Below, in pieces: positions 5,696 through 50,225 of a stretch of DNA of 64,000 bases. The position numbers and the translations under genes were made by a program. The stretch is from Oscillospiraceae bacterium. GTDB lineage: Bacteria > Bacillota > Clostridia > Oscillospirales > Ruminococcaceae. Position 1 is the stretch's first letter; each line of letters opens with the position of its first letter. The notes below the pieces were generated by a model. The model did no database searches, was not told the DNA's origin, and saw only the letters and a program-made list of their open reading frames with translations. The stretch lies in the NCBI GenBank assembly GCA_022791945.1, contig JAAVZY010000021.1, forward strand, positions 3,295 to 67,294, in the 5' to 3' direction.

Positions 5696-5905
5696 CGGAG
5701 CGCTTTTGAGTTGCGTAATGTTTGAGTTGGAGGGTGAAGCTGATGAGCTTAGGCGCCATTCTGCTTTGGTGCGGGCTGGGAGGGGCGGCGCTTTCTCTTG
5801 TTGCGGGAGCGGTCTGCTGGCTTCTCCTGCGGCGGAAGGGGCGGGAGCTTCTTCATGCCATCGAACGGGAATATAAATAGAAGTGATTCATTCGGAAAGC
5901 GAGGA

Positions 5906-9903: not shown

Positions 9904-9926
9904 TTTCCAGGAAAGGAGCTGAGGCG

Positions 9927-11270
9927 ATGAAGGCGCTGAAGATAAAGAAGGGGCCGATCCTGCTGCCGCTACTTCTGCTGGCGGCGGCGCTGGGGGCCTA
10001 CACCCTGCTGAACTACCAGGGGGTCACCGCGGCGGACAGCCTTTCCCTGGGGGAGCAGCAGCTGAACAATCTGGACTACAGCGGGGCGGTGGCCTCCTTT
10101 ACCCAGGCGATTTCCCTGGATCCCAGCAGCCGGGACGCCCGGATTGGGCTGGCCAAGGCCTACGCCGGCGCGGAGGAATACGACTTTGCCCAGCAGGTGC
10201 TGGATGATCTGGTGGGCGCGGAGAGGCCGGATGAGGACGCGGCCCTGGTGATGGTGGACATTCTCCGGAAGAACGGGCGGCTCTCCCAGGCGGCCCGGAT
10301 GGCGCAGCTCCTGGTGGACGCCACAGACGGGGACGAATACTACGCCCTGCGGGATGAGCTGCTCTCCGGCGTGTATGACGTCCCCTGTCATGGGGCCGCA
10401 GGGAACGGGTATTCTCTCCTTCTGCGGAACGGGCAGGTGTTGGGCAGAGGAAGCAACGACATGGGACAGCTGGGGCTGGATCCGGCGGCGACAGCTTTCA
10501 GCGATTCGTATAGTTCCTGCGGGTTTAATGGTACGGCGGTGAAGGTGGCCTGTGCCGGCCGGACCTCGCTGGTGGTGGATCAGTCCGGCGGGCTCTGGGC
10601 CGCTGGTGAGGATCGCTGGGGGCAGATGGGAGAGGGGTACGGACTGACCTCCTCCCGGAGCGGCTGGCGGCAGCTGGCCTGTCCCGGCCCTGTGGCGGAT
10701 GTGGCAGGCACCACCGGCAGGCTGCTGGTGCTCCTGCGGGACGGTTCCCTCTGGACAGCGGGCGCGGGAGGGGATCAGACCTTCCGGCGGCTGTCCTTTC
10801 CGGTGGTATCCGCCATTGCGGCCAGTCAGGATCGGGCTGCGGTGCTGACCGTGGGCGGGCAGCTGCATGTGAGCCGCGCGGATGCGCCGGAGCAGTGGAC
10901 TCTGGCGGCTTCCAACGTGGTCAGCTTCACCCTTTCGGGCAGCGGGCTCTGCTGGGTGACCGGGGAGAACGGGCTCTGCCTGGAACAGGGACAGCTCAAT
11001 GTCCCTGCCAGCTGGTATAACGGGGATATTTATCCGGACTTCACCCTGGAGCAGGCGGCGGTCCTGGAGAACGGGTCTGCCCTGCTGCTTGGCACCGGCG
11101 ACCGGCTTTACCGGCTTCCGGGCGACGGGACAGTGCAGGAGCTCCAGACCGACAGCCCGGTCCGAACCCTCCGGCCCATGGACGGACTGCTCCTGCTGGA
11201 GCACGCAGACGGCTCCGCCTCCTGGTGGAACCCCGCTTCCGCCTCCCTGGAGCCAACAGACACGCTTTGA
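9927..11270 (+). CDS. Signal-anchored TPR + RCC1-like beta-propeller repeat protein
   Basis: ATG at 9927 after aggaaaggag. N-terminal hydrophobic anchor, TPR-like helices, then RCC1-type signatures GRGSNDMGQLG and AAGEDRWGQMGEG. Confidence 0.65.
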   Translation: MKALKIKKGPILLPLLLLAAALGAYTLLNYQGVTAADSLSLGEQQLNNLDYSGAVASFTQAISLDPSSRDARIGLAKAYAGAEEYDFAQQVLDDLVGAERPDEDAALVMVDILRKNGRLSQAARMAQLLVDATDGDEYYALRDELLSGVYDVPCHGAAGNGYSLLLRNGQVLGRGSNDMGQLGLDPAATAFSDSYSSCGFNGTAVKVACAGRTSLVVDQSGGLWAAGEDRWGQMGEGYGLTSSRSGWRQLACPGPVADVAGTTGRLLVLLRDGSLWTAGAGGDQTFRRLSFPVVSAIAASQDRAAVLTVGGQLHVSRADAPEQWTLAASNVVSFTLSGSGLCWVTGENGLCLEQGQLNVPASWYNGDIYPDFTLEQAAVLENGSALLLGTGDRLYRLPGDGTVQELQTDSPVRTLRPMDGLLLLEHADGSASWWNPASASLEPTDTL

Positions 11271-11807: not shown

Positions 11808-12059
11808 TTGGCTTCTGATAAGGCAATCATCATGATCAATCTGGTAAAGAGCGGGCGGACCTGCGACCTGGAGACGCCCCTGGACATCTCTGCCAGCGAG
11901 CTGTGCTCTGCGCTGTTTTCCAGGTACTTTCCGGAGCAGTATGGGGACATGAGCCAATATTATCTGCGGGCGGAACGCCCTATCGCCCTGCTCCGGGGGG
12001 AACGCACCCTGCGGGAATACGGCATCCGGGACGGCAGCGTCATCAATCTTGAAAGGTAG
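11808..12059 (+). CDS. esaB: YukD/EsaB-like ubiquitin-fold T7SS protein
   Basis: 83-aa ORF immediately upstream of essC. TTG start 8 nt after AGGAGG (alternative ATG at 11832). Size, position and the IDLxxxLD..xxSELxxAL / GIRDGSVINLER pattern fit YukD. Confidence 0.75.
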   Translation: MASDKAIIMINLVKSGRTCDLETPLDISASELCSALFSRYFPEQYGDMSQYYLRAERPIALLRGERTLREYGIRDGSVINLER

Positions 12060-12067
12060 AAGCCATC

Positions 12068-15000
12068 ATGAACCGTGAACAGCAGTATATTCTTACCATC
12101 CAGAACGGGGACGTCTTCAAAGAGGTGGACGTCTCCGGACAGACGCCCTCCCTGAAAATCGGCACCCTCCAGGACTGCGGGGTGCGGCTGAAAGGGGAGC
12201 TGTTTCCTGTTCCGATCTCCCTGGCGCTTCGGCTGGGGGAGGATGGCTGGCGGCTCTCCTGCGGGCAGGGGCTCTGCCTGAGCTCCTCCTCTGTCCAGGA
12301 CTGCGGCGAAGCCCTCATCGGCCACGGGGACATTCTCCGTCTCTGCCGGCAGGGAGAGCGTCAGGAGCTTCTGACCCTTTCCTTCTCCTACAACTTTACC
12401 GCCGGGTTGGGGGAGTTTGACACCATCCTGGACATTCGCGGCCAGTCCCGGATCCTCATCGGCAATCACCCCGCCGCCCAGATCCAGCTGGCAAGCGGCT
12501 ACATTGGGGAGGAATATCTGATCCTCTCCGCCGCGCAGAACGGCCGGTATGCCCTGGACGTTTCCAACGCTGCAGACGCCACCCTCAACGGCGTCCGCCA
12601 GCTCTCCTCCTGCACGGTGGGAGAGTTTGACTTCATTGGCATCGCGGATTACAGCTTCTACCTAAAAAACCAGCTTTTGTACACCCAGGGCCGAAAGGAT
12701 CTCACCCTCCGGGGCATCCCCTCCCAGCCTCTCCGGGAGGAGACAGCGGCCTTCTGCTACCCCAAGCTCAACCGGAGCCCCCGGATGGAGTATGTGTTTG
12801 ACCGGGAGCCCATCGAGATCCTCAACCCGCCCGGAAAGCCCTCAAAGCCCCGGGACAATCTGGTGCTTCAGCTCTCTCCCGCGCTGGCCATGCTGGCGGT
12901 CACCTTCCTGACCCGGAGCGGGCTCATCGGCGGATCCCGGCCCAGCAATCTGAGCTTCCTGCTCTTCAGCGTGGCGACGATGACGGTTGGCATCTTTACC
13001 ACGGTTCTGAGCTTTGTGCACAACCGGCGGCAGTACAAAAAGGATCTGGCCGCCTGGTATGGGGACTATGAGGCCTACATTGCTGCCAAACGCCTGGAAA
13101 TTCAGGAGGAGCAGCAGCGGGAGCTGGCCGCCCTGGAGGATCTCTCCCCCTCCGGGGAGCAGCTCAGGGACTTTGTGAAAACCTTTTCCAGCCGCCTCTT
13201 TGAGCGTTCTCCCGGGGACGGGGATTTCCTTCACGTCCGGGCAGGGCTGGGCGCGGTTCCCGCCCTGCGGCCGGTCACCAACAGCTGCGAGGAGCATATC
13301 AAGGAGGAAAACGATCTGGCCCATATCCCGGCGGAGCTCTGCAAGGAATACGCCCTGATCCAGCCTGCGCCGGTGATCCTTCACCTTCGGGAGTCGGGCT
13401 GTACCGGCGTGGTGGGCTCCCCGGAGGAGCAGTACGAATTCTTTAAGACCCTCCTGCTGGACGTCTGTGTACAGCAGGACTATGAGGAGCTCCAGGTTGT
13501 GGTATTCATCCCCAGGGGCCAGGAGGAGAAGTACCGGTGGATCCGCTGGTTCCCCCACATCCGGGAATCCGGCGGCGGGGCCAGGGGGATCGTCTGCGAC
13601 GACGAGAGCCGGGACAGCCTGCTGGAATACCTCTACGCCCTGGCAGGGGCCCGGAGTGCCGCGGCGGAGCAGGAGGGCGGCAGCGCGCCCCAGCCCAGCC
13701 CCCATGTATTGGTGCTGGTGCTGGAGGAGTACGGCCTCCGCACGCACCCCCTGTTCAAGTTCGCGGAGCAATGCGGCAGTCTGGGACTGAGCTTTGTCTT
13801 CTTCCAGGAGTACGGGGAGAACCTGCCCCGGTACTGTCAGGAGATCGCGGAGCTCCAGCCCGGCAGCGGGGTCCTTCTCCGGAAGGCGGATAAGGCGTTC
13901 CGCTCCCCCTTCCGGCGGGAAGGGGTGGACGACGCCAGCATCCGCTTTGCGGCGGAGCGTCTGGCCCCGGTCTACAGCGAGAAGATCGCCCTTGCCTCTC
14001 GGCTCACCGCCAAGATCACCCTGTTTGAGCTTTTGAATATCATTGAGCCCAAAAACCTGGATCTCCGCCAGCGGTGGGCCCGATCCAACGTGCAGAAATC
14101 CCTGTCCGCCCCTCTGGGAGTGGACGCCAAGGGCAGCGTGATAGCCCTGGATCTCCATGAGAAGGCCCATGGCCCCCATGGCCTGGTGGCCGGCACTACC
14201 GGCTCCGGCAAGAGCGAAATCATGCAGTCCTACATCCTCTCCGCGGCGGTGAGCTTCCATCCCTATGAGGTGGGGTTTGTGATCATCGACTTTAAGGGCG
14301 GCGGCATGGCCAACCAGTTCGAGCGGCTGCCCCATCTGATCGGCAAGATCACCGATATTGACAGCCAGGAGATCAACCGGTCCCTGCTCTCCATCCGGGC
14401 GGAGCTGGAGAAGCGGAAGCGGCTCTTCGCGGAGCATGAGGTCAACCATATTGACCAGTACATAGCCAAATACCGGGAGGGAGCGGCCCAGGTTCCCCTG
14501 CCCCATCTGATTCTGATTGTGGACGAATTCGCCGAGCTCAAGGCGGAGCAGCCGGAGTTTATGAAGGAGCTCATCAGCACCGCCCGGGTGGGCCGGAGCC
14601 TGGGCATCCACCTGATTCTGGCCACGCAGAAGCCCTCCGGCCAGGTGAACGAGCAAATCTGGAGCAACTCCCGGTTCAAGCTCTGCCTGAAGGTGGCTAC
14701 TCGGGAGGACAGCAACGAGGTGCTCCGCTCCCCGCTGGCGGCGGAGATTCTGGAGCCGGGCCGGGCGTATCTCCAGGTGGGCAACAACGAGGTATTCACC
14801 CTGTTCCAGTCCGCCTACAGCGGCGCCTCTGCCTCCAGCGATAAAAACGGCAGCATGCGGGAGTTTTCTATCCAGGAGGTGGATTTCGCGGGCAGGCGGA
14901 CAGAGGTCTACCAGCGAAGGGCCCCCCGCTCTGACGACGGCAGCCGGATTACGCAGCTGAAAGCCCTGGTGAGCTATATCAACGGCTACTGCCAGCAGGA

Positions 15001-16642
15001 GGGGATCCCCTCTCTGCCGGATATCTGTCTGCCGCCCCTGCCGGAGCTGCTGCCCTATCCCAGCCAGCCCCACAGCGTCCGGGCGCTTCCCGCAGGCGTT
15101 TATGACGCGCCCTCCAGCCAGCTCCAGCCGGAGCTTACCCTAGATCTACTGGAGGCCAATGTGATGATCATCGGCTCCGCCCAGACCGGCAAGACCACCT
15201 TGCTCCAGAGCCTCCTGCGGGGGCTTGCCGAAGCTGCCTCCCCCAAAGAGGTATCGGTCTATATTCTGGACTTTGCCTCCAAGATCATGAAGGTGTTCCA
15301 GGAGCTGAACCATGTGGGCGGGGTCCTTACCGATGGAGACGACGAGAAGCTGAAAAACTTCTTCAAGATGATCCTGTCCGGCATGGCCGAGCGGAAGGAG
15401 GTTTTCTCCCAGCTGGGCGTCAGCTCCTACGAGGCCTATCTGGAGCTTGCCCCGGAGAACCCCCTGCCGCACATTGTCATCATGGTGGATAATCTGGCCA
15501 TGTTCCGGGAGCTGTTCCCGGACTACGAGGAGGCCCTGCTGAACATCTGCCGGGAGGGCCTGGCTTTGGGCATCACCGTGATTGCCACCGCCAAGCAGAC
15601 CAGCGGCCTGAGCTACCGGTATCTGAACAGCTTTGCCCGGCGGCTGGCCTTCAACTGCACGGAAAACAGCGAGTACAGCAGCCTCTTTGACCGGTGTCAG
15701 CTTCGGCCCCGCAGCTTCCAGGGCCGGGGACTGGCGGCGGTGGATAAGGTCGTGTATGAATATCAGGCCTTCCAGCCCTTCCCCGGAGAAAAGGAGAGCC
15801 AGCGGACCGAGGCGATCCGGGCCTTCATTGCTTCTATGGAAGGGATCTGGGGCAGTCTCCGGGCCCGGCCGGTGCCCGGCATTCCCCAGCTGCTGACTGG
15901 GGATTACTGGGATGAGAACGGCCTCCGGTTTGACCCGTATGTAGTGCCAATCGGCCTGACCTACGGGGAGATTGAGCCCCTGACGGTGGATCTGGCTCAC
16001 ATCGGCGGCCTGGGCGTCTATGGACGGAAGGGCTTCGGCAAGAGCAACCTGCTCCGGATCCTGCTGGGATATCTCCAGCGGCACGTGTTCGACTTCCCCT
16101 CCCAGGTCTACCTGATCGACAGCTATGATCATCAGCTGGCGGAATTCCGCACCTTCGGAATCGTGGAGCAGCTCACCATTGACTGCGGGGATTTTGAGGA
16201 TATCCTTCAGACCTTCGCCGACGAGGCGGAGCGGCGGATGGATATCCTCCGGGAGGGAGCGGATCTGGCGGAGGAGCCCCTGCTGCTCTGCGTCCTCCAG
16301 AATCAGGGGATCTACGGGCCGGGGGCGGTGCCTAAGCCGGTCTGCGAGCGTCTTCGGCAGCTGCTCAAGGACGCGCCCCAGCTGAAGCTCTGCTTCCTGT
16401 TCTCCGATGTGGAGAACAACGGGGAGTACGCCCCGCCGGAGCTGCTGAAGGTAGTCCGGGAGCTTGGGCAGCAGCTTCTGCTGGATGATCTGCCCGGGGT
16501 CAAGTTCCTGGGGAGCAATAAGTTCACCCCGGCGGAGCTGAAGCAGAACCGGAAGCCTCTCTCCCTGGGAGACGGTTACTGGTACGACGCCAGAGACGGG
16601 GTGCAGAAGCTCCGGCTGGTCAAATGCGAGGAAGCAATCTGA
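12068..16642 (+). CDS. essC: Type VII secretion FtsK/SpoIIIE-family ATPase EssC/YukB
   Basis: 1524 aa. N-terminal tandem FHA-like region, two TM helices and three P-loop domains (GTTGSGKSE, GSAQTGKTT, GRKGFGKSN). Walker B IVDEFAEL. Confidence 0.95.
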   Translation: MNREQQYILTIQNGDVFKEVDVSGQTPSLKIGTLQDCGVRLKGELFPVPISLALRLGEDGWRLSCGQGLCLSSSSVQDCGEALIGHGDILRLCRQGERQELLTLSFSYNFTAGLGEFDTILDIRGQSRILIGNHPAAQIQLASGYIGEEYLILSAAQNGRYALDVSNAADATLNGVRQLSSCTVGEFDFIGIADYSFYLKNQLLYTQGRKDLTLRGIPSQPLREETAAFCYPKLNRSPRMEYVFDREPIEILNPPGKPSKPRDNLVLQLSPALAMLAVTFLTRSGLIGGSRPSNLSFLLFSVATMTVGIFTTVLSFVHNRRQYKKDLAAWYGDYEAYIAAKRLEIQEEQQRELAALEDLSPSGEQLRDFVKTFSSRLFERSPGDGDFLHVRAGLGAVPALRPVTNSCEEHIKEENDLAHIPAELCKEYALIQPAPVILHLRESGCTGVVGSPEEQYEFFKTLLLDVCVQQDYEELQVVVFIPRGQEEKYRWIRWFPHIRESGGGARGIVCDDESRDSLLEYLYALAGARSAAAEQEGGSAPQPSPHVLVLVLEEYGLRTHPLFKFAEQCGSLGLSFVFFQEYGENLPRYCQEIAELQPGSGVLLRKADKAFRSPFRREGVDDASIRFAAERLAPVYSEKIALASRLTAKITLFELLNIIEPKNLDLRQRWARSNVQKSLSAPLGVDAKGSVIALDLHEKAHGPHGLVAGTTGSGKSEIMQSYILSAAVSFHPYEVGFVIIDFKGGGMANQFERLPHLIGKITDIDSQEINRSLLSIRAELEKRKRLFAEHEVNHIDQYIAKYREGAAQVPLPHLILIVDEFAELKAEQPEFMKELISTARVGRSLGIHLILATQKPSGQVNEQIWSNSRFKLCLKVATREDSNEVLRSPLAAEILEPGRAYLQVGNNEVFTLFQSAYSGASASSDKNGSMREFSIQEVDFAGRRTEVYQRRAPRSDDGSRITQLKALVSYINGYCQQEGIPSLPDICLPPLPELLPYPSQPHSVRALPAGVYDAPSSQLQPELTLDLLEANVMIIGSAQTGKTTLLQSLLRGLAEAASPKEVSVYILDFASKIMKVFQELNHVGGVLTDGDDEKLKNFFKMILSGMAERKEVFSQLGVSSYEAYLELAPENPLPHIVIMVDNLAMFRELFPDYEEALLNICREGLALGITVIATAKQTSGLSYRYLNSFARRLAFNCTENSEYSSLFDRCQLRPRSFQGRGLAAVDKVVYEYQAFQPFPGEKESQRTEAIRAFIASMEGIWGSLRARPVPGIPQLLTGDYWDENGLRFDPYVVPIGLTYGEIEPLTVDLAHIGGLGVYGRKGFGKSNLLRILLGYLQRHVFDFPSQVYLIDSYDHQLAEFRTFGIVEQLTIDCGDFEDILQTFADEAERRMDILREGADLAEEPLLLCVLQNQGIYGPGAVPKPVCERLRQLLKDAPQLKLCFLFSDVENNGEYAPPELLKVVRELGQQLLLDDLPGVKFLGSNKFTPAELKQNRKPLSLGDGYWYDARDGVQKLRLVKCEEAI

Positions 16643-16666: not shown

Positions 16667-17071
16667 ATGGCTATGGCGGAAACAGCCGCCCGTCCGAACG
16701 CGCAGACAGTCCTGAACCAAACCAAGACCGCTATGGGAGCCGTCGTCGGGTCAGCCATGAGCGGCGCCCTAAACGGCGGCGAGACGGTCGCCCATCTGGA
16801 CACCAAGAGCTTTGAGGATGCCATAACGGCCTTCGGTAGCTACATCACCAGCTTTGAGACAATCGTTAAGGAGGTACGGGCGCTTCAGAAGAAGCTGCTG
16901 GACAACTGGAAGGGGGAGGGCAGCAAGGCCTACGACAAGGATTGCTGTCAGGTGTCTCTCAATCTGCAGGATCTTTCCGATATTATGTATGAGCTCCGGG
17001 ACGGCCTGATCAATGCCCAGGTGGAGTACATCCGAACGGATGCTGCTGTGTCCAAGGGCTTTGACTCATAG
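16667..17071 (+). CDS. WXG100-like small helical protein with N-terminal extension
   Basis: W-K-G motif (LLDNWKGEGSKAY) at the centre of a predicted helix-turn-helix. The start may be the ATG at 16673, 7 nt after ggaaaggggga. Confidence 0.6.
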   Translation: MAMAETAARPNAQTVLNQTKTAMGAVVGSAMSGALNGGETVAHLDTKSFEDAITAFGSYITSFETIVKEVRALQKKLLDNWKGEGSKAYDKDCCQVSLNLQDLSDIMYELRDGLINAQVEYIRTDAAVSKGFDS

Positions 17072-17082
17072 GGGGGATAAGT

Positions 17083-17523
17083 ATGTCTTTGGATTCGCTG
17101 AACCGGGAGCTCGACCGTTGGAATGATCGGGCGGACACTCTGTCCGATCAGGTGAAGAAGCTGAAAAACCGCAAAAGCGCGGTGGAGAAAATCCGGCGGG
17201 CGCTTTCCAGCACAGCCCGCAGCGGGAGCGGAAGCGCCAACAGCGCCCTCCAGGGCTGCCGGAGCGGTCTGGGGATGGGCGTCCGGTTTTCCGGTAAAGA
17301 GGCCCTGCTGGACGGGATTTTTGATCTGGAAAAAAAGGAAAAGTCCCTGGAACAGGACGGGGATCTCTCCCAGGCGGATGAGGCCCTGGGACAGGAGCTG
17401 CGAAGGATCGAACAAGATCTGAAGAGCGCGGAGAGCTCCCTGAAGGAAGCCAAGAGCGCCGTCAGCTCTACCAAAAGCGCCATTCGCAAGGAGAAGCTGA
17501 ACAACATCGCAAAGGGGAGGTGA
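17083..17523 (+). CDS. Small coiled-coil protein (T7SS-associated, function unknown)
   Basis: 146 aa with heptad-rich, K/E/L-rich sequence. Tightly packed between the WXG-like gene and the LXG-like gene. Confidence 0.55.
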   Translation: MSLDSLNRELDRWNDRADTLSDQVKKLKNRKSAVEKIRRALSSTARSGSGSANSALQGCRSGLGMGVRFSGKEALLDGIFDLEKKEKSLEQDGDLSQADEALGQELRRIEQDLKSAESSLKEAKSAVSSTKSAIRKEKLNNIAKGR

Positions 17524-17528
17524 CTGCC

Positions 17529-19328
17529 ATGACGCTGACACTGAGCTATGGGCATCTGGACGAGGTTATCAGATATACCAAAAACCTTTCCAACAGCCTG
17601 AACGAATACTGCGACGACCTGTGCGATAAGGTGCAGAAGAAGCTGTTGGACGTGGAGGGCGGAGGCTCCTCCCATCTGGAAAATGCCGGCTACTATGTGA
17701 AGCGGAAAATGGAGAAGATTCGTCAGCGGAAGGCCAATGCCGACACGATGAATACCTTGGCCCGGAATCTGCTGGACACTGCCAAGCGGGTGGACAGCAG
17801 CGTTAAGTCGATGATTGAGGCCAGACAGGCGGAATTTTTTGAGAAATATCCGGATTTGAAGCCGAGCAATTTCAAGATGATGCAGACCAGCTTTCTGTGC
17901 GATCTCAGGAATGTGCCGGTGCTTGGCTGGATCATCAAGGGAGTTGAAGCAGTCGGAAGAGGCTGGAACGATCTGGGAAAGAACATCCGGCACTGGTGGA
18001 AGTGCGGCGGCGGGCAGGAAATCGTCATGAACGCCGTGGACATTGTGGTGAAGGTCGGACTGGCCGTGGTGGCGGTAGCCGTTGCTGTGTCTGCCGTTGC
18101 GGCGCTCGCAGGCGGGACCGTGATAGCGATAGTGGTGGCAGGCGCCGCTTTAGTAGCGGCAGCGATCGCCTGTGTGAATGCAGTCACAAACACGATCACT
18201 TCTGTTCGGGCCATTGCCGCCGGAGGGGACGATCCCGCCATGGCGAAGATTTACGGGAAACAGGACAGCCTTTCCACAGTTCTGAGAGAAACCAACTTCC
18301 GGGATTGGGGCTTGCGGCCCATCACATTCCAGATCCCGTTCTCCGGAGGAATGACTTACACGCTGGATTTGGGCCGGATTCTTAACCGTAAGAGTATGGA
18401 ATGGGCAACGGAAATTGAGATTGCGGATAACCTTGCCAGCCTGATCCTGATTGCTGACGCTGCATGGAAAGCCGGCGGCACCCTGGTGAACAAGCTGGAT
18501 CGTTTTGCTGCCACCAACGGCATCGACTCCGCTTTTAAGGTGACAGTCCAGGGAAGCAACGGGACCACAGTCCAAAAAGTGACCTTCCAATCCCTAAAGG
18601 ATGGCTTCAAAGCCTTAGTCATGGATAAGCCTCCGACTTCCGGCGCCTCTCAGGGAGTGCGCACCATCCTGCTCGACAATCTGAAGTCCAACGCTGGAAC
18701 CTGGGTCACCCAGGTTAAGAATGACCTGCGGCACCCGATCCCCTGGTTCCGGAGCCAGCAGGCGGCAGGAAAGATTCCTACAGTTCAGAGCATCCGGCAG
18801 AATTTACAGAGTCTTCCTTCCAGCCTCAAACAGAATTTACAGAATATTCCTTCCAAACTCCAGCAGGGCTGGACGCAGTTTGCGAATGCCAGCAGGAGCG
18901 ACAAGCTGCTGAAAGCCGATGCTATTGCCAAGAAGGTAAATATCGGGATCTCATCCGGTCAGAGCTTTGTTGAAGGAATCTATAATGTAGGGGACCGGAA
19001 TCTGATTGATCGGGGCCTGGAGCGCTTCTTCAGGACAAAGGTCTTTTCCAAGAACAGCGCCGTGCAGTTCCTCAATACCAGCGGAATCGGCGGCGTCATA
19101 TTTGGCAATAACCTTAAGAACCTGACAGGCATCAGCCAGGGCGGAGTGATCCAAAAGACATTCGGGATATTCAAGAAAAGCGAGACACCCAGTTATACCA
19201 GCAGCAGCTTAAGTCGGGTGTGGGATCATTACAATGAAATAGAGAACTTCAGATTTACCTTTGATCTGGAAGCACTGCGGCTCCAGCAGAGTAAGCTCCG
19301 TTTGGAGCTTGAAAATATAGGGAGGTAG
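17529..19328 (+). CDS. LXG-like putative T7SS substrate with Ala/Val/Gly-rich TM hairpin
   Basis: ATG at 17529, 8 nt after aaaggggagg. Helical N-terminal ~150 aa (LLDVEGGGSSHLENAGYYVKRKM resembles the LxG region). Hydrophobic stretch VVKVGLAVVAVAVAVSAVAALAGGTVIAIVVAGAALVAAAIACV. Visibly lower GC than its neighbours. Confidence 0.55.
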   Translation: MTLTLSYGHLDEVIRYTKNLSNSLNEYCDDLCDKVQKKLLDVEGGGSSHLENAGYYVKRKMEKIRQRKANADTMNTLARNLLDTAKRVDSSVKSMIEARQAEFFEKYPDLKPSNFKMMQTSFLCDLRNVPVLGWIIKGVEAVGRGWNDLGKNIRHWWKCGGGQEIVMNAVDIVVKVGLAVVAVAVAVSAVAALAGGTVIAIVVAGAALVAAAIACVNAVTNTITSVRAIAAGGDDPAMAKIYGKQDSLSTVLRETNFRDWGLRPITFQIPFSGGMTYTLDLGRILNRKSMEWATEIEIADNLASLILIADAAWKAGGTLVNKLDRFAATNGIDSAFKVTVQGSNGTTVQKVTFQSLKDGFKALVMDKPPTSGASQGVRTILLDNLKSNAGTWVTQVKNDLRHPIPWFRSQQAAGKIPTVQSIRQNLQSLPSSLKQNLQNIPSKLQQGWTQFANASRSDKLLKADAIAKKVNIGISSGQSFVEGIYNVGDRNLIDRGLERFFRTKVFSKNSAVQFLNTSGIGGVIFGNNLKNLTGISQGGVIQKTFGIFKKSETPSYTSSSLSRVWDHYNEIENFRFTFDLEALRLQQSKLRLELENIGR

Positions 19329-19330
19329 CT

Positions 19331-20635
19331 ATGGAAAACATTGATGTGCAGGAATACCTGACCCAAGGGGCCGTCCTCTCCGGGCAGGGCCAGTATGAAG
19401 CGGCCCTTGAGTACTATCGGAAGGCGGAAAAGGCGGATCCCATGGATCCGGAGGTCTATCTCGCCCAGGGCACAGCCCTGGCCAGCCTGGATCGGCTGGA
19501 GGAAGCCAAAACCCAGTTTGAGAAGGCGCTCAAGGTAGATCGCACCTGCGGGCTGGCCTACTTCCACCTGGGAAGCATTGCGATTCTCCAGGGGGACGTG
19601 GCCAAGGGCTTTGAGGACTACAACAAGGCTGTTTCCAACGGCTACGACGACGCCCAGCTCTACTACAGCATGGGCCTGCTTCATGAGGAGATCGGAGAGA
19701 TGGATCTGGCCATCCGCAGCTATTCCAAGGCGGCGCTGCGGGACCCCACCCGGCCGGACGTGCGCCTGCGGAAGGCCCAGCTCCTCCAGCAGTGCGAGCG
19801 GATTCCCGAGGCGCTCCAGGCTTTGGACGAGATGATCCTGGCCTGCCCGGATTACTTTGAGGGCTATCATATGAAATGTGTCATCCTGACGCAGCAGCGC
19901 CGCTGGGCTGAGGCGGAAAAGCTCCTGGCGGACGCGCTGGCCCTCTTCCCGGAGGATCCGGGCTTTGCGCTGGATAAGGCGTCTCTTCTGGTAGAGCGGG
20001 GCCGGACGGAGGAGGGCCTGGCTCTCCTGGATGAGCTGGAGCACCGGGAAAAGACCGACGATCCGGTTCGCCGCCGGATCTATATGGAGCGGGCCCGGAT
20101 CCACGCCTCCGCCAATCAGCTTGACGAGGCCATCACCGCCCTGAACCAGGCCAAGGCCCTTTCGGAAAAGGAGGGCGTCTTTGACCAGCAGGCAGTCTTT
20201 TTGCTGGCAAACTGCTGCCTGTCCAAGGGGAGCTATGAGCAGGTGCTGGACTGCGCCCTCCAGCTGCGGGAGAAGGGAGAGGACGTCTATATTCTGGAGA
20301 CGGCCCGTTACTTCCAGCCTTTGGCCCTGAAGATGATGGGGCGGATGGAAGAGGCCCTGCCTCTTTATCAGGAGGCGGTCAGCGCCTACCGGCAGCAGTC
20401 CCTGGATATGCCGGGCAATCTGGACGCTTATCTGCTGCGGATCATGTGCCTGCGGGACATGGAGCAGTATGAGAAGGCGTTGGAGCTGACGGATTATGTG
20501 CTTCAGCTCAAGCCGGATCGGGCCGAGCCCCGGATGCTCCGGATTTCCGTGCTGGAGGCCATGGGCCGGACAGAGGAGGCCCAGACCGAAGCCAATGCCC
20601 TTCAGGAGCTGCTCCCTCCGGAGCTGCGGAAGTAG
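19331..20635 (+). CDS. Cytoplasmic TPR repeat protein
   Basis: 434 aa of consecutive 34-aa TPR-like units (e.g. YEAALEYYRKAEKADP, AIRSYSKAALRDP). Starts 3 nt after the upstream stop. Confidence 0.8.
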   Translation: MENIDVQEYLTQGAVLSGQGQYEAALEYYRKAEKADPMDPEVYLAQGTALASLDRLEEAKTQFEKALKVDRTCGLAYFHLGSIAILQGDVAKGFEDYNKAVSNGYDDAQLYYSMGLLHEEIGEMDLAIRSYSKAALRDPTRPDVRLRKAQLLQQCERIPEALQALDEMILACPDYFEGYHMKCVILTQQRRWAEAEKLLADALALFPEDPGFALDKASLLVERGRTEEGLALLDELEHREKTDDPVRRRIYMERARIHASANQLDEAITALNQAKALSEKEGVFDQQAVFLLANCCLSKGSYEQVLDCALQLREKGEDVYILETARYFQPLALKMMGRMEEALPLYQEAVSAYRQQSLDMPGNLDAYLLRIMCLRDMEQYEKALELTDYVLQLKPDRAEPRMLRISVLEAMGRTEEAQTEANALQELLPPELRK

Positions 20636-20666
20636 GGCTTGCGCAATGAGAGGATGAGGTGTGGCT

Positions 20667-20969
20667 ATGGCTGTAAACTTACATCTGGATCAGGATGCTT
20701 TTCAGGCAGCCTGCTCCGGACTGGAGGAAAAATGCCGAGATCTGGAGGCGCTCAGCGGCCAGATTCAGAGCTCCTTTGAGCAACTCCGTCAGGATTGGGA
20801 CTCCCAGGCAGGAAAGCTCTTCTTTGAGCGTTTCGAGAACGATCTCATCAAAAATCTGGATCAGTTCACAGTGGTTATGGAGCACATGAACCAGAACCTT
20901 TCTTCTGCCTCCCAGCAGTATGAGGAGGTATTTGAGGCCGCTGAAGCTGTCGCCAACGGACAGTTCTAA
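20667..20969 (+). CDS. WXG100-family protein with degenerate W-x-S motif
   Basis: 100 aa, two predicted helices, central QDWDSQAG in place of WxG. ATG at 20667 after gagaggatgagg. Confidence 0.6.
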   Translation: MAVNLHLDQDAFQAACSGLEEKCRDLEALSGQIQSSFEQLRQDWDSQAGKLFFERFENDLIKNLDQFTVVMEHMNQNLSSASQQYEEVFEAAEAVANGQF

Positions 20970-21585: not shown

Positions 21586-21885
21586 ATGGCAGAAAGAATT
21601 ATGATGACCCCTCAGGAGCTCAACGACGGCGCAGGATTTCTGCGCGATCGCCTGGAGGCTATCAACAGCGAGGTACAGTCCCTGAAAGCGAAGATCGACG
21701 ACATCGTTTCCCGGTGGGAGGGTGCCGCTCAGCAGTCCTTCGTAGCGCAGTTTGAAGAGCAGCTGTTCCCCATCCTGCGGGATGATATGCCCCAGGTCAT
21801 TACAGGCATAGCGGAGGAGCTGGATGCTGCGGCCAACGCCATCCGTGATACGGACGAGAGCCTTTCCAGCGCGTTTAAGGGCTAA
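21586..21885 (+). CDS. esxA: WXG100 family protein EsxA-like
   Basis: 99 aa. Canonical central W-E-G (SRWEGAAQQSF). Strong RBS aaaggag 9 nt upstream. Confidence 0.85.
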   Translation: MAERIMMTPQELNDGAGFLRDRLEAINSEVQSLKAKIDDIVSRWEGAAQQSFVAQFEEQLFPILRDDMPQVITGIAEELDAAANAIRDTDESLSSAFKG

Positions 21886-21960
21886 GTGAGAAGGCTGCGG
21901 CGGCCTGCCTTTGGCGGGCCGCCGCGGCTGCGCTTTCATCAATTTCAAGGAGGTTTCCCC

Positions 21961-23475
21961 ATGTCTGTCAAACGACTGCTGGCTCTATTCAATGTGCTGA
22001 TCCTCATTGTCCTTCTGTCCGGAAGGAGCCTGGGAGCGGACAGCGTCTCCCTGGTCCAGGCCTATGCCTGGGAGGACACCCTGGACGTCTTTACACAGGG
22101 CGCTTTCAGCCCCGACAGCCTTTCCTGCCGGATCTCCAATCAGGAGGCGGAGATTGTCCGGAGCGGTTCCCTGGCGGATATGGGGGTAACCGTTCAGACC
22201 CAGCTGCTGGTGGATGTGTCCACCTCCATGCCCGCGCCCCTGCGGGATAAGGTACTGGCTGTGATGGACGCCCTGATTGCCTCCATCCCTCCGGGAGAGC
22301 AGTACCAGCTTGCGGCCATCGGGGAGCAGGTTTCCGTGCTCCAGCCCTTCACCTCTGATCGGTATGATTTGGCTGTGGGAGCATCCAAGATCGCTTTCAA
22401 CGGCCAGGAAAGCCGGATCTACGACGCTGTTTACAACACCCTTCCCCAGATCGCGCCTTTGGAAGAGGGAAAGCCCTGCTTCTACCGCACGGTCATTTTG
22501 ACGGACGGAGTGGATCTGACCGATACCGGCGTGACGGTAGAGGAGCTCTACCTGAAGCTCCAGTCCAGCACCTATCCCATTGACGTTGTGGATGTCGGCG
22601 AAAAATCCGCGCCGGATCGGGAGCTGTCCGCCCTTGCGCGGATCAGCGGCGGACGGTACTTCTCCCTGAACGGGACGACGGATCCGGCGGCTCTGGCCGC
22701 CTCCCTGGGCGTGGGAGACGTATACTGGACCCGGCTGAAAGCCCCGGAGGCGCTCCTGGACGGTTCCACCCGGCAGGTCAACCTGTCCGACGGCAGTCTC
22801 TCCCTGGAGTTTGACTGCAAATTCCCCGTGTTCGGCACGCCGGAGACATCTTCGGCGCCCCCGGAGCCGCCCCCTGTATCTTCTGCGGTTCCGGTGATCC
22901 TGCCGGAGCCTGCGCCGGAGCCGGAGAAGAGCCTCCTTCCGGTGCTGCTGATTGCCGGCGCTGCGGTCATCGCCGTCAGTGCCGCAGTGCTGACGGTGCT
23001 CCTGCTCCGGAAGCGGGGCAAACAGGCGAAGCCTGGTGCCGGCGGATTGATTCCGCCCGCGCAGGGAGGGCAGGGAACAGAGCTGCTGTCAGCGGATGGG
23101 CGCACCCAGCTGATTTCCTCCACGGCCCCTTCTGTCCGGCTCCGGAGCACCGCAGATGCTTCTCAGGTGTGGGAGCTGGTTTTGGGCGCGCAGGGCCAGG
23201 AGGTGCGGATCGGCCGAAGCCCCGACTGCCGGATCTGCCTGCCGGAGGCCAGCGTCTCCCGGGAGCAGTGCAGGCTTTACTATGACGGGGGAATCTATGC
23301 GGAGAACATCAGCGGCTCCAACGTCACCCAGCTCAACGGAGAGCCGCTCAAGGCTCCTGCCCTCCTGGCAGAGGGGGATCTGCTGAAATGCGGCCGGATC
23401 TCTCTGATTGTAGAGGCGGTCACCATCTCCGGTGGAGGAAACCTGAACAAGAAAACCGCTTTCATCAATATATAG
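21961..23475 (+). CDS. Signal peptide - vWA - TM - FHA domain protein
   Basis: ATG at 21961 after caaggagg. N-terminal signal-like helix. MIDAS DVSTSM with TDGVD. TM LLPVLLIAGAAVIAVSAAVLTVLLL. C-terminal FHA signature RIGRSPDCRICL..SVSREQCRL..NGEPL. Confidence 0.8.
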   Translation: MSVKRLLALFNVLILIVLLSGRSLGADSVSLVQAYAWEDTLDVFTQGAFSPDSLSCRISNQEAEIVRSGSLADMGVTVQTQLLVDVSTSMPAPLRDKVLAVMDALIASIPPGEQYQLAAIGEQVSVLQPFTSDRYDLAVGASKIAFNGQESRIYDAVYNTLPQIAPLEEGKPCFYRTVILTDGVDLTDTGVTVEELYLKLQSSTYPIDVVDVGEKSAPDRELSALARISGGRYFSLNGTTDPAALAASLGVGDVYWTRLKAPEALLDGSTRQVNLSDGSLSLEFDCKFPVFGTPETSSAPPEPPPVSSAVPVILPEPAPEPEKSLLPVLLIAGAAVIAVSAAVLTVLLLRKRGKQAKPGAGGLIPPAQGGQGTELLSADGRTQLISSTAPSVRLRSTADASQVWELVLGAQGQEVRIGRSPDCRICLPEASVSREQCRLYYDGGIYAENISGSNVTQLNGEPLKAPALLAEGDLLKCGRISLIVEAVTISGGGNLNKKTAFINI

Positions 23476-24032: not shown

Positions 24033-25184
24033 CTACCCCTTCGCCAACTCCTCCAGAGACTGCCCACGGAGAGCGCGTTCCAGGAGAAGAGGGAGCTTTT
24101 CCGGGGCGCAGGCGAAGCAGGGGATTCCCATAGCGGCTACCTTCTGGGCGGTCTGCTGGTCATAATAGGGCTTGCCGCCGTCAGCAATGGCCAGCAGCAC
24201 CACCACGGTCACGCCAGAGGCCTTCATCTCCTCCAGCCGCCGGAGCAGCGCCGCCCGGTTGCCCCCCTCGTCCAGATCGGAAATCAGGAAAAACAGGCTC
24301 CGGGCCGGGGCCTCCACCAGCCCCTGACAGTAGGCGATGGACCTGGCAATGTCCGTCCCTCCGCCCATCTGGAACCCAAACAGCAGATCCACCGGATCGG
24401 CGCATAAAGGGGTCAGATCCATGATCTGGGTGTCAAAGGCAACCACGCTGGTCTGCACGGCGGACATGGAGGCCAGCACACAGGCCATCACCGACGAATA
24501 CAGCACGGAAGGCCCCATGGACCCGCTCTGGTCAATGTCCAGAATCACATGCCAGCGGTTGATCCGGCTGGAGCGATCGAAAAAGAGCACCCGCTCCGGA
24601 ATGATGGTCTGAAGCTCCGGGTTGTAGTGGCGCAGGTTCCGCCGGATGGTACCGGGAAAATCAATGGCGGCGGCAGAGGGGAGGGGAGAGTGGGCGCGCC
24701 GGTTCAGGGCGGCGGTCACTGCCCGCCGGACGTCGTTCTCCAACAGTCGGTTGATCTCCTCCACGATTTTCCGGATGAACTTCCGGGCCGCTTCCTTGGA
24801 TTTCTTGGGAATCTGATCCTTGAGCATGAGCAGGGTGGAGGCCAGATTCAGATCCGGCTCCAGCCCCTCCAGCAGCTCCGGCTCCAGCAGAAGCCGCTTC
24901 AGCCCCTTGCGCTCAATGGCGTCGTTTTGCACCACCGCCACGATCTCCGGGTCAAACAGAGACCGGAGATCCCCCAGCCACTTGGAAATGTGGGGGGCGG
25001 AGGGCCCCTTTCCCGCGCCGCCGGCGGACATGCTTTCTCCCGGCCCGCCGTAAATGGCAGACAGCGCGCTGTCCATCAGCAGCTCCTCCTGAGACAAAGG
25101 GGAGCCCCCCATCCGCTGGAAGGATTCCTGGGCCTCCGAGCCCAGAATCAGCCGCCAGCGAGCCATTTGTTCCTGCTGTGTCAC
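24033..25184 (-). CDS. vWA (CoxE-like) domain protein, YehP-like
   Basis: 383 aa. MIDAS DIDQSGSM with GGGTDI and ISDLDEG. Last gene of the SWIM/AAA+/vWA operon. Confidence 0.8.
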   Translation of the reverse strand: MTQQEQMARWRLILGSEAQESFQRMGGSPLSQEELLMDSALSAIYGGPGESMSAGGAGKGPSAPHISKWLGDLRSLFDPEIVAVVQNDAIERKGLKRLLLEPELLEGLEPDLNLASTLLMLKDQIPKKSKEAARKFIRKIVEEINRLLENDVRRAVTAALNRRAHSPLPSAAAIDFPGTIRRNLRHYNPELQTIIPERVLFFDRSSRINRWHVILDIDQSGSMGPSVLYSSVMACVLASMSAVQTSVVAFDTQIMDLTPLCADPVDLLFGFQMGGGTDIARSIAYCQGLVEAPARSLFFLISDLDEGGNRAALLRRLEEMKASGVTVVVLLAIADGGKPYYDQQTAQKVAAMGIPCFACAPEKLPLLLERALRGQSLEELAKG

Positions 25185-25196
25185 AGGCTCGCCTCC

Positions 25197-27476
25197 TTAA
25201 ATATCATCAAAGTTGAATTCCTCCAGATCGCTCAGCAGCGCCTGCTCCGCCTGGGTGGGCTCCTGCATAAGCAGCTCCGCCGCCTGGGCTGGATTCACGC
25301 CCCAGATCTCCCCAAGATTCTCTGCAATGTCGTTCTTTTCACTGGGGGAGAAGTCCGCAAAGGCCCGGCGCAGGAATACCAGCGCCCGCCTGAAAGCGTC
25401 CTCGTCCAGCCCGTCCAGATAGCCGCTCAGCTGCCGCCACAGGGACAGCCGGGCAATCAGGGCGTACCGGTTTTTCCCGGCCAGACCCTCGAACCATCCG
25501 GCCCCCAGATCCGCAGGCACGCCTGGGGAGAGCCTGCGGGAAACCTCCCGGGCCAGCAGCTCCTCGGAAACAGCTCCCCGCTCCAGCAGAATCGCCATAG
25601 CAAAGCCGGAGCATCGGGTGTTCAGATCGTCCCGGTCGGAAACCCCCTCCAGCAGCCGGATCCAGCGATCTTCCTCCAGGAAATCGTGACTGAGCTGGAG
25701 CGCGTTCAGCTGCTCCATGGCCTTGGTCACAGCGGCAGCGGACTTTGTGTCGCAGAGGCAGGCGTCCTCCAGAGTCAGGCAGGCCCGGAGATACAGCTGC
25801 TTCACCAGGGGCACCACCGGCTCCGGATCGAACCGGCGGAGATCCCCGTACCGCACCACCAGGGAAAGCCGCTGGGCGGTTTCCGCCACATCCGCCAGAG
25901 CCGCCGCATCCACAGACAGCCCCTGGAGCACCGAAAGCGCGTGAGCCGCGGCGGCGGGCATCCCGCAGAGGAAGGCGTCCTGGAAAATGGCTGCCGCCTG
26001 GGCGATGGTGGCGCTGGATTCGGCCCGTTCCTTCAAGGCAAAGGCGGCGGCGCCTTCGATGGTGTCCCCCATCAGGGCAGACTCCACCACCTCGATTTCC
26101 ACCTCCGGCGTCCAGCGGAGCTCCCAGTATTCGCCCCAGTTGGCCCCCTCCTGGCGGGAGGGAAGCTGGGAGGCAAAGTGAATATTCAGCACCCGCAGCC
26201 GATGGAGGAAGAAGGAACGCCGCAGATCCCCCAGCGCTGCCTTTTCCGACTGAACGGACAGCTTTTCCCGAAGATCCAGATCCAGCCGCTGAAGCTCGGC
26301 GGTGCGGAACTTCTCCAGCCGCAGCTCCTTCAGCTGACGGTAGAAATCCTCCTGGACGGAGGTGCGGCTGACCCCCTCGGGGAGAAACCCAATCTTCCGG
26401 CTGATCTCCGTCTCCGCCGCAGCCAGGGCCAGCTCGGAGAAATTTCCGTGGCCCATGGTGGTGACGGAGGCGTCCCGAAGATCCGCTAAGGTGGGATACC
26501 GGCTTCCCCGCATAGAGGCCAGAGTGTGGGCCAGCCGGACTCCCTCAATCACCTCCGCTGAGGAAACCAGGTTCCCGGCCTTCCGGTGGGCGGCGGCCAG
26601 GCGGGTCAGGTAGAGATAGGGCGCGTCTCCCAGATCCCCCCGGTTGAGGGCGTCCCAGAGAAGCTCAAAGTAGGCGGGGGCCTTGTTCCCGGCCCCATAG
26701 CCGGAGCGGGAGGTGAGCCGGTAGTAGGAGTAGGGCATCAGGGTAGCTGTAGAATCCGCCCTGGGAAGAGCGGCCTCCTCACGGTCGGTCATGGGCTGAT
26801 TTTCCTCCAGCCCTGCCACATGGAAGGCGCCGCAGACGCAGAAAATCCGCTCCTCCGGGATGCCGCTGTCCACCGCCTGGCGGATAACCCGCTTCATGTA
26901 GGCTTCCCGGACGATGGTTTCCGCCTGGCGGCGGTCATCCTCCCGGGAGGCTTCCCGGAGCTGCCTTCCGAAGGCGCCGCAGGCGTCCCGGTATTCCGCC
27001 GGCCCTGGGAGCTGCTCAAAGCGCCGCTCCCAGAAGGTGTCATGCTCCTCTCCGGTGAGATCCTCCAGCCGACGGTAGACGCTTTCGGTCGTGCTGGCGC
27101 AGTCCTCCTCCGGAGCAGAGGCATCCTCCGCCGGGGGCGGGGGGCTCTTCGGCTCCAGGGCCAGGAACACGGAGGAGGGGAGATCCATAAACCGGCATTC
27201 CGCCCCATGCTCATGGGCCCAGAGAATGGCCTGGATCTCTGGGGAATAGATGGCAAAGGGATAGAGCAGGGTGCGGACCGGCGGCGTTTTGGTATAGGCC
27301 AGGATGGCGACGGGGAATTGGGCGGCGGGATGGGAGAGCCACTGAAGCTGATCGTTCAGATCGCTGGGCCCCTCCACCAGCACCAGCCTGGGCCTGGCCT
27401 CATCCAGGGCCTGCCGCAGCCGGAAGGCGGCGGCGGGGGAAAGGTGGCGCACCCCGAACAGAATCGGCCCGCCCAT
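25197..27476 (-). CDS. Large conserved hypothetical protein, YehM/DUF5682-like by size and context
   Basis: 759-aa ORF. Its ATG shares one base with the upstream AAA+ stop (TGATG). I recognise no motif; the call rests on gene order only. Confidence 0.6.
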   Translation of the reverse strand: MGGPILFGVRHLSPAAAFRLRQALDEARPRLVLVEGPSDLNDQLQWLSHPAAQFPVAILAYTKTPPVRTLLYPFAIYSPEIQAILWAHEHGAECRFMDLPSSVFLALEPKSPPPPAEDASAPEEDCASTTESVYRRLEDLTGEEHDTFWERRFEQLPGPAEYRDACGAFGRQLREASREDDRRQAETIVREAYMKRVIRQAVDSGIPEERIFCVCGAFHVAGLEENQPMTDREEAALPRADSTATLMPYSYYRLTSRSGYGAGNKAPAYFELLWDALNRGDLGDAPYLYLTRLAAAHRKAGNLVSSAEVIEGVRLAHTLASMRGSRYPTLADLRDASVTTMGHGNFSELALAAAETEISRKIGFLPEGVSRTSVQEDFYRQLKELRLEKFRTAELQRLDLDLREKLSVQSEKAALGDLRRSFFLHRLRVLNIHFASQLPSRQEGANWGEYWELRWTPEVEIEVVESALMGDTIEGAAAFALKERAESSATIAQAAAIFQDAFLCGMPAAAAHALSVLQGLSVDAAALADVAETAQRLSLVVRYGDLRRFDPEPVVPLVKQLYLRACLTLEDACLCDTKSAAAVTKAMEQLNALQLSHDFLEEDRWIRLLEGVSDRDDLNTRCSGFAMAILLERGAVSEELLAREVSRRLSPGVPADLGAGWFEGLAGKNRYALIARLSLWRQLSGYLDGLDEDAFRRALVFLRRAFADFSPSEKNDIAENLGEIWGVNPAQAAELLMQEPTQAEQALLSDLEEFNFDDI

Positions 27477-28567: not shown

Positions 28568-28588
28568 TGGCGTTCACTCCTTCAAAGT

Positions 28589-29253: not shown

Positions 29254-29268
29254 GAGGCCGTCGGAGCC

Positions 29269-31131: not shown

Positions 31132-31146
31132 TTAAGATACCTCCCT

Positions 31147-50154: not shown

Positions 50155-50225
50155 CAGAATGGAATGAAACGGATGTAACCTGGTACTGCCCCATTTAGCG
50201 AAGCAAGAGCAGCACCAACCGGCCT

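Follow-up and report, generated by a model that had tools for sequence, protein, structure and literature searches.

We analysed a 64,000-nucleotide (nt) stretch of contig JAAVZY010000021.1 from an Oscillospiraceae bacterium (GenBank assembly GCA_022791945.1; positions 3,295 to 67,294), hereafter the window, and focused on a row of genes directly downstream of essC, which encodes the FtsK/SpoIIIE-type ATPase of type VII secretion. EssC (12068..16642, on the + strand like the other genes of the row; 1524 amino acids (aa)) scores 1080 bits against TIGR03928 (T7_EssCb_Firm; cut-off 778) and carries two hydrophobic segments within residues 264-317. It is preceded by the gene for a YukD/EsaB-like ubiquitin-fold protein of 83 aa (11808..12059; PF08817 YukD, E 1.5e-8), a machine component found upstream of essC across all related loci. 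Immediately after essC come four genes, encoding a 134-aa small helical protein of the WXG100 family (16667..17071), a 146-aa protein composed of a helix, a Gly-Ser loop and a second helix (17083..17523), a 599-aa protein with a hydrophobic hairpin (17529..19328) and a 434-aa cytoplasmic tetratricopeptide repeat (TPR) protein matched by many TPR models of Pfam (19331..20635). The row is tightly packed, with 24, 11, 5 and 2 nt separating essC and the successive genes, and is followed by the gene for a 102-aa WXG100-like protein that lacks the WXG motif (20661..20969; TIGR03930, E 6e-8, below the cut-off). These five genes are called the module below. The four open reading frames (ORFs) after essC lie on the + strand exactly where an earlier interpretation, made from the letters of the window alone (the sequence-only reading), had placed them, and they are real genes. 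All loci that we examined on the basis of relatives of the 599-aa protein show the same order, at 32-47% identity. The 599-aa gene starts at the ATG at 17529, not at the GTG at 17520; the ribosome-binding site is GGAGG, and the homologues start at the same residue.

The N-terminal region of the 599-aa protein (residues 1-106; 17529..17846, + strand, as for all its parts) was modelled by AlphaFold2 as a WXG100-type helix-turn-helix, presumably a type VII targeting domain. The model was built on an alignment of 134 sequences; an earlier run with 18 sequences had a mean predicted local distance difference test (pLDDT) value of 46.5 and was unusable. Two helices (residues 7-40 and 48-106) are joined by a loop (residues 41-47), with mean pLDDT values of ~87-98 in 10-residue blocks over residues 1-110, and the resulting hairpin superposes on the EsxA/EsxB crystal structures 3zbh, 4j7k and 3gvm with target TM-scores of 0.64-0.84 and root-mean-square deviations of 2-4 A (Foldseek). 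No Foldseek match of the 599-aa model in the PDB reached E <= 0.001, no solved LXG complex was among the top 50, and a sequence-profile search of the PDB returned nothing relevant. The sequence-only reading had noted an LxG-like turn, LLDVEGGG, in this region. A turn does interrupt the N-terminal helical hairpin (residues 41-47; 17649-17669, loop VEGGGSS in the model), but its conserved form is V-x-G-G and not L-x-G; the hinge residues V42 and G45 are at least 90% conserved, and K60 and D89 are invariant among 134 relatives. Linker helices follow (residues 107-161; 17847..18011; residues 114-126 and 130-158 in the model) and end in a conserved W-x-x-C-G-G-G motif, in which W156, G161 and G162 are near-invariant.

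The central part of the protein is an Ala/Val-rich helical hairpin, predicted from hydropathy and the model to be a membrane hairpin (residues 162-232; 18012..18224). Its hydrophobic block covers residues 164-226, its modelled helices residues 162-195 and 198-232, and the 70 residues from 163 to 232 include 21 Ala, 18 Val and 5 Gly; the Kyte-Doolittle hydropathy reaches a maximum of 2.88 over residues 164-221. The description of this segment as a glycine-zipper-like hairpin of ~65 residues was right about the hydrophobic hairpin and only loosely true about the zipper, since the protein contains no strict GxxxGxxxG motif and six small-xxx-small-xxx-small motifs ([GAS]xxx[GAS]xxx[GAS]) in a hairpin that is central, not C-terminal. 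The small-residue zipper is found in 136 of 146 relatives and the strict glycine zipper in 7 of them. The hairpin is followed by the motif GDPAMAKIYG..D..S.VLRE.NF (residues 233-260; 18225..18308), in which Y242, D246, N256 and F257 do not vary in 18 relatives and which persists in the consensus of 134 sequences, and then by a mostly helical, fast-evolving C-terminus modelled with low confidence (residues 261-599; 18309..19328).

The distribution of the module was assessed in an unbiased set of 80 loci, fetched through EssC alone with one genome per species, the ORFs of which were searched. The gene order in the loci examined through relatives of the 599-aa protein is YukD, EssC, a WXG100 protein (98-103 aa), a coiled-coil protein (141-158 aa), the hairpin protein, an optional small membrane protein, the TPR protein (435 aa), two WXG proteins, a VWA/FHA protein and a Ser/Thr kinase. 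The module was present in all loci that have downstream DNA and an EssC at least 60% identical to that of the window; at 38-44% identity, about 12 loci carried the module and about 50 did not. In a rough EssC tree, the module-bearing loci were monophyletic around the window and patchy elsewhere, interleaved with other cassette types. Conservation of the 599-aa gene as a core, invariant component in all loci had been taken beforehand as a sign of an apparatus subunit, and on this point the result is mixed: the module is found in all loci of the window's EssC clade that have downstream DNA, yet it is absent from about 50 of the 80 related loci and patchy on the tree, and is thus not a universal part of the machine.

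What occupies the same place in the other loci is informative. Canonical LXG cassettes were found within 10 kb downstream of essC in 18 module-less loci, and none was found in any module-bearing locus; the two cassette types never occurred together in these loci, so that the module is positionally equivalent to an LXG cassette. An LXG-type order is seen in [Ruminococcus] torques ATCC 27756, where essC is followed by esxA, genes for DUF4176, YwqH-like and DUF5344 proteins, a 174-aa gene and an LXG gene (E 7.5e-40). We also observed one Oscillospiraceae genome in which the module lies upstream of yukD-essC (locus L013, 4646-7612); its hairpin-protein ORF is just 232 aa long, which suggests rearrangement or decay.

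The N-terminus of the 599-aa protein also occurs with other C-termini. Two representatives, P0098 and P0066, share just the N-terminal ~125-160 residues with it, and the P0043 group is a further cargo swap. P0098 (L089, 5754-7103) lacks the hairpin and has a soluble C-terminus with Cys/His motifs. It belongs to a locus of the window's own clade (EssC 62% identical), and its surroundings are those of the module, namely EssC, a WXG protein, a coiled-coil protein, P0098, a TPR protein of 415 aa, two WXG proteins, an FHA protein and a kinase. P0066 (L092, 1927-3642), at an orphan site, has a C-terminus containing an HExxH motif (HEVGH) and is followed by a 263-aa gene, which could encode immunity. 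A Pfam scan of the two swapped C-termini yielded no family; judging from these motifs, which were recognised by eye, the Cys/His motifs of P0098 suggest a papain-like enzyme and HEVGH of P0066 suggests a zinc peptidase. The sharing of the N-terminus among proteins with different C-termini indicates that its ~125 residues are a movable targeting module, and the hairpin-less P0098 in the same slot indicates that the hairpin is cargo, not an obligatory part of the machine.

Two small helical partners precede the hairpin protein. The 134-aa protein passes the Pfam WXG100 model (PF06013; 32.8 bits, cut-off 27.3), has WKG at residues 81-83 and scores 34.5 bits against TIGR03930, below the cut-off of 44.85; its family matches the EsxA-like family with an hhalign probability of 97%. 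In module-bearing loci its gene is always directly 3' of essC and encodes 94-103 aa, and the copy in the window has an extra N-terminal extension of ~35 residues relative to its relatives. The 146-aa protein matches YwqH-like PF16888 at 15.5 bits (E 0.022), below the cut-off of 33.7, and the profile of its family aligns with YwqH-like proteins of the sister loci over 118 columns, near its full length, with an hhalign probability of 50% (E 1.6e-4), so that a remote homology to YwqH-like proteins is possible. It evolves fast, with identities of 33-41% across the clade where it is detectable at all. Throughout the window's EssC clade a WXG100 gene and a helix-loop-helix gene stand upstream of the hairpin gene; in the distant loci, similarity detects the WXG100 gene alone, mostly with an unassigned gap of ~400 nt before the hairpin gene. 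The arrangement had been likened to Lap1-Lap2-LXG, and the likeness holds for the two small helical genes upstream of a large one; neither an LXG domain nor DUF3130/DUF3958 partners accompany it, as neither Lap1 nor Lap2 was among the Pfam matches of the small proteins at E <= 0.1. Some Laps are WXG100 proteins (PMC11217815). We regard the 134-aa protein as a candidate co-secretion partner of the Lap type and the 146-aa protein as a candidate second, YwqH-like/Lap-like partner. Almost all module-bearing loci in which DNA is available at that place also have the 102-aa WXG-like gene, which occurs in three module-less loci as well; its product is a module-linked third small helical protein. The core WXG100 protein of the system is instead the 99-aa EsxA-like protein encoded further downstream (21586..21885, + strand; PF06013, E 1e-14; WEG at residues 44-46), the type that lies directly after essC in module-less loci.

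Taken with the equivalence to the LXG slot, the WXG100-type N-terminus, the small partners and the modular use of the N-terminus bear out the earlier proposal of an essC-proximal cassette for a type VII substrate. We therefore favour, with a probability of about 0.55, the view that the four genes and the 102-aa WXG-like gene constitute a conserved substrate module belonging to a non-canonical type VII system in this Clostridia bacterium, LXG-like in its organisation but distinct from LXG. For the 599-aa protein, export through the type VII machinery is the likeliest fate. Its N-terminal helix-turn-helix would bundle with the 134-aa and 146-aa proteins into a composite export signal read by EssC, as in LXG-Lap complexes, and the cytoplasmic TPR protein would act as a dedicated chaperone or adaptor for such substrates. 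After export, the Ala/Val hairpin may enter a membrane, most probably that of an adjacent bacterium, and disturb its barrier or potential, and the fast-evolving C-terminal third may provide specificity. TspA, EsxX and TelE, which in function are the nearest precedents, are type VII substrates that combine helical N-termini with membrane-depolarising or pore-forming domains (PMC7456083, PMC12744356, 10.64898/2026.03.12.711312), and it is by analogy with such proteins that we infer a membrane-depolarising toxin mechanism.

The family of the 599-aa protein is large. A full HMMER profile scan of 1.84 billion cluster representatives recovered 604 representatives at E <= 0.001 (the family thus has at least 604), and 434 at E <= 1e-10. 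The 17 relatives found by a word-indexed search had no names, and a cluster look-up of ten proteins returned entries that were all unnamed or 'hypothetical'; a search of a 5.8-billion-protein set for cargo domains with the N-terminal profile reduced 948 candidates to three fragments. No family was found in a Pfam and NCBIfam scan of the 599-aa protein of the window. The LXG model PF04740 did not match this protein at E <= 0.1, nor any of 90 family members at E <= 0.001, a search that did detect the sister-locus LXG protein at the E value given above. In hhalign comparisons the N-terminal profile aligned with LXG domains from the sister loci at 5%, a figure of limited weight because the method is weak for such helices (a control of LXG against WXG100 gave no more than 6%), and with WXG100 families at 30-37% (best E 3.5e-4, over the whole hairpin). 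Membership of the LXG family, as proposed in the sequence-only reading, is hence unsupported, and the protein, as far as profile searches can tell, founds a family that lacks annotation and lies outside Pfam LXG. No Pfam family was common to the 90 members scanned, and the five singleton matches were unrelated to one another and included no toxin domain. The central hydrophobic block, of median length 56 aa, is present in 138 of 141 full-length representatives, and the C-terminal regions of 114 of 131 join one homologous cluster, with 14 minor types besides. The family is thus mainly one conserved architecture with a fast-evolving tail, and not a classic, highly polymorphic toxin family.

The TPR protein is a constant companion of the hairpin protein. 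Its length is 434-435 aa in the majority of the window's EssC clade (L085 and L089 have 415-421 aa) and 429-450 aa in distant loci, and it has no hydrophobic segment; its matches in the PDB were generic TPR matches only. In none of the 80 loci fetched through EssC did either of the hairpin and TPR genes occur without the other. The TPR protein had been put forward as either a chaperone or an immunity factor. An immunity role appears unlikely from its conservation, as its identity across the clade (55-65%) is like that of EssC (62-66%) and its gene (415 aa) is retained beside the hairpin-less cargo P0098; being conserved like EssC and constant despite the change of cargo, the protein is better read as a chaperone or adaptor, and its presence beside P0098 shows that it accompanies the export domain, or the system as such, independently of the hairpin. 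We also noticed a third kind of essC-proximal cassette in the sister loci L065 (14518-18550) and L078 (14598-18365). There EsxA is followed by a 162-178-aa coiled-coil protein, which in L065 is a true match to YwqH-like proteins, and then by two helical proteins (91-132 aa), a protein of 411-435 aa for which no family was found, and a TPR-like protein of 345-354 aa. As these cassettes also include a TPR-like protein, TPR proteins may be recurring helpers of type VII substrates in these bacteria.

A central hydrophobic hairpin between helical regions, always with a TPR protein next to it, brings to mind the translocators of type III secretion, which have TPR class II chaperones. By this account the 599-aa protein would be exported and would form a translocator or conduit in the target or envelope membrane through which other type VII substrates pass, with the TPR protein as its chaperone. 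The conservation of the full length across Clostridia families would fit such a structural role better than it fits a polymorphic toxin, and a translocator would be at ease in a window without an immunity gene (see below). Two family members weakly match SseC (PF04888; one match precomputed, the other in one of the 90 members at E 4.4e-4), but such matches are rare and probably compositional, and the 599-aa protein of the window has no match to PF04888. The TPR protein scores 61.3 bits against the LcrH/SycD class II chaperone model TIGR02552, which is under the cut-off of 104.8 and typical of any TPR protein. Moreover, its persistence beside a hairpin-less cargo shows that it is not a hairpin-specific chaperone, and no second substrate was identified whose delivery needs the 599-aa protein. 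We consider the translocator quite unlikely. If it is genuinely one, it would be the Gram-positive counterpart of the type III translocators and a candidate answer to the question of how type VII substrates cross the target membrane.

The substrate module, which we prefer, shows signs of conflict, namely the fastest divergence at the C-terminus, an excess of non-synonymous changes and small membrane genes in the slot. Across the clade, identity is 45-51% in the N-terminal domain of the 599-aa protein, 53-62% in the hairpin region and 26-34% in the C-terminal tail where this can be aligned. Most of the differences between the window and a contig of the same species (L094; essC 99.6% identical) fall within the hairpin protein, at residues 351-480 (nt 18579-18968; 95.1% nucleotide identity). 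In this segment 11 codons differ non-synonymously and 3 synonymously, versus 11 and 28 in the rest of the locus (Fisher's test, p = 0.0016); coming from one pair of sequences, the hotspot is suggestive but not firm. In many loci a small membrane gene lies between the hairpin and TPR genes, as at L003 8305-8811, at L009 16346-16852 in Acetatifactor muris and at L017 16774-17409. These genes are of two unrelated types, one of 159-183 aa with a hydrophobic segment at each end and the other of 190-250 aa with an N-terminal hairpin; their ORFs matched no family in a Pfam scan, and we regard their products as candidate immunity proteins. Neither type has a homologue at this slot, or anywhere in the 64 kb of the window.

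Several of these observations weigh against a toxin-like substrate. The 599-aa protein lacks a match to the LXG profile, and the corresponding hhalign value is low; no toxin domain was recognised among the family members; the architecture is shared by most of the family and does not resemble a set of highly polymorphic toxin domains; and the likeness of the 146-aa protein to YwqH-like proteins reaches only 50%. The within-species hotspot amounts to 14 codon differences in a single comparison. A toxin would also act on sister cells, and the lack of an immunity-family homologue in the window sits uneasily with this. Finally, the hairpin is central and as hydrophobic as an ordinary integral membrane segment, and could therefore sit in the producer's own membrane. 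Both the translocator and a machine subunit, which is discussed below, are kept alive by the absence of an immunity gene, by the conservation over the full length and by how extremely hydrophobic the hairpin is.

In base composition, the 599-aa gene is indeed more AT-rich than its neighbours, as had been pointed out, with a G+C content of 0.534 and a third-codon-position G+C of 0.67, compared with 0.62 and 0.83 for essC and 0.62 and 0.80 for the TPR gene. Nevertheless, the dip is modest: the gene is at the 10th percentile of 1800-bp windows, several other stretches are lower, and the small WXG genes share the dip. As the module also diverges roughly in step with EssC within the clade, recent horizontal transfer is unsupported, and so is the argument from AT-richness for a horizontally exchanged cassette. 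Two stretches of the window, at ~44800-46400 and 49500-53700, have a G+C content of 0.46-0.52 (window mean 0.59), both below the 599-aa gene, and may be foreign islands.

The surrounding genes bear on the nature of the secretion system. Downstream of the EsxA-like gene lies the gene for a 529-aa VWA and FHA protein (21886..23475, + strand; PF00498 FHA, E 7e-13, and VWA_2; hydrophobic segments at residues 23-52 and 346-377), which is kept downstream throughout the window's EssC clade and is a probable machine or regulatory component. Upstream of yukD we found genes for a Ser/Thr kinase that has a TPR tail and a single membrane segment (2977-5064), two zinc-ribbon proteins (5798-6454 and 6599-7210), a 908-aa VWA protein (7177-9903) and a TPR/RCC1-like protein (9900-11270). 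No match to EssA, EssB (YukC) or EsaA (YueB) was found among the + strand ORFs of at least 60 aa scanned between 270 and 29113, and the cluster is accordingly not a classical Firmicute type VIIb system. The gap could in principle be filled by the 599-aa protein itself. As a membrane-embedded accessory subunit standing in for EssA, EssB and EsaA, it would span the membrane of the producer with its hairpin and keep its two ends cytoplasmic, the N-terminus and its partners would dock on EssC, and the TPR protein would be an assembly factor. Such a role would agree with the presence of the module in every locus of the window's EssC clade with downstream DNA, with the hairpin region being the best conserved part of the protein, with its near-invariant flanks (W-x-x-C-G-G before the hairpin and N-A-x-x-N-x-x-T-S after it), with a Kyte-Doolittle value of 2.9, which is typical of true membrane anchors, and with a TPR partner that evolves as slowly as EssC. 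Nevertheless, L089, a locus of the same clade, keeps the TPR, WXG, FHA and kinase genes and yet has a slot protein without a hairpin; the ~50 related EssC loci do without the module, many with LXG cassettes in its place; the kinase, the VWA-FHA protein and the 908-aa VWA protein are membrane proteins that could build the machine; and an excess of amino-acid changes within a species would be unexpected for a cytoplasmic C-terminal domain. We thus regard an accessory subunit as unlikely, and continue with the exported substrate of an LXG-like module.

Among the closest known systems are the cassettes of LXG proteins with Lap1 and Lap2 of the Firmicute type VIIb system, such as those of TelA and TelC in Streptococcus intermedius (PMC10801868, 10.1101/2022.07.06.499029). 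Both they and the module have two small helical genes upstream of the gene for a large substrate, a long N-terminal helical hairpin that is reused with other C-termini, and a place next to essC in the same slot. The module differs in having no PF04740 match, a V-x-G-G turn, partners that are WXG100 and weakly YwqH-like proteins instead of DUF3130/DUF3958 proteins, a large TPR protein instead of DUF4176, and mostly a single C-terminal architecture. TspA of Staphylococcus aureus (PMC7456083) is similar by description, with its helical N-terminus, membrane-active part, polymorphic C-terminus and occurrence in many strains and genera. Its published model is similar to the type III translocator YopB (PMC7456083), which recalls the weak SseC matches among the 599-aa relatives. 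Adjacent membrane proteins give immunity to TspA; small membrane genes are found beside the module in some loci but not in the window. The TspA gene lies at a distance from the secretion locus, and repeated DUF443 immunity genes follow it, whereas the 599-aa gene lies inside the secretion cluster and its product has a central hairpin of far greater hydrophobicity.

EsxX of S. aureus ST398, with ExiAB and ExiCD (PMC12744356), and TelE of Streptococcus gallolyticus, with six partners (10.64898/2026.03.12.711312), are membrane-damaging toxins kept both soluble and harmless in the producer by soluble proteins that are always co-encoded. For EsxX, a soluble cytoplasmic neutraliser always co-occurs while the membrane immunity proteins are variable (PMC12744356). 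Such soluble proteins, variable membrane immunity proteins and several small proteins that bind the N-terminal domain are the features in which EsxX and TelE resemble the module as we propose it. Both, however, have true LXG domains and C-terminal glycine zippers, neither of which is present in the 599-aa protein, and neither ExiAB nor the TelE partners are TPR proteins, whereas the TPR protein of the module stays with a hairpin-less cargo. The type VII systems T7SSc to T7SSj (Garrett, Higginson and Palmer 2024; PMC11217815) share with the window a YukD-like protein, an EssC-like ATPase, WXG100 proteins, FHA and vWA proteins, a membrane-bound Ser/Thr kinase whose C-terminus has TPRs, as in TsjD, and candidate substrates flanked by small WXG100-related genes. 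A membrane protein fusing VWA and FHA, a constant TPR protein of 435 aa and the hairpin protein of the module are all missing from their described gene sets (PMC11217815), and the gene set of the window does not obviously match any of them.

Hardly any work exists on type VII secretion in Clostridia from the gut and the environment, and the module may add to it in more than one respect. The N-terminal export domain, which would be LXG-like in its working, is invisible to the LXG profile, and current toxin surveys consequently miss it. That the TPR protein travels with the export domain irrespective of the cargo points to a new class of chaperone or adaptor for type VII secretion. The membrane-hairpin cargo is widely conserved, and its role could be that of a toxin, a translocator or a part of the machine. 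Two cultured organisms, Acetatifactor muris DSM 23669 and Thermoclostridium caenicola DSM 19027, carry the module and make these questions testable; neither species is mentioned in the supplementary text files of PMC11217815.

Elsewhere in the window, a row of genes on the minus strand (25197-32577) encodes a DUF5682 protein (759 aa, E 3e-151), a MoxR-like AAA_5 ATPase (27476-28567), a 620-aa protein to which no family could be assigned and a SWIM zinc-finger protein (31147-32577), and looks like a MoxR-type multi-gene system. The + strand ORF at 24549-26489, which overlaps the DUF5682 gene, is probably spurious. The gene for the NAD-dependent DNA ligase LigA lies at 55429-57876. Its listed ORF, of 815 aa with a GTG start, begins ~160 residues before the first ligase domain, and the true start is therefore probably further downstream.

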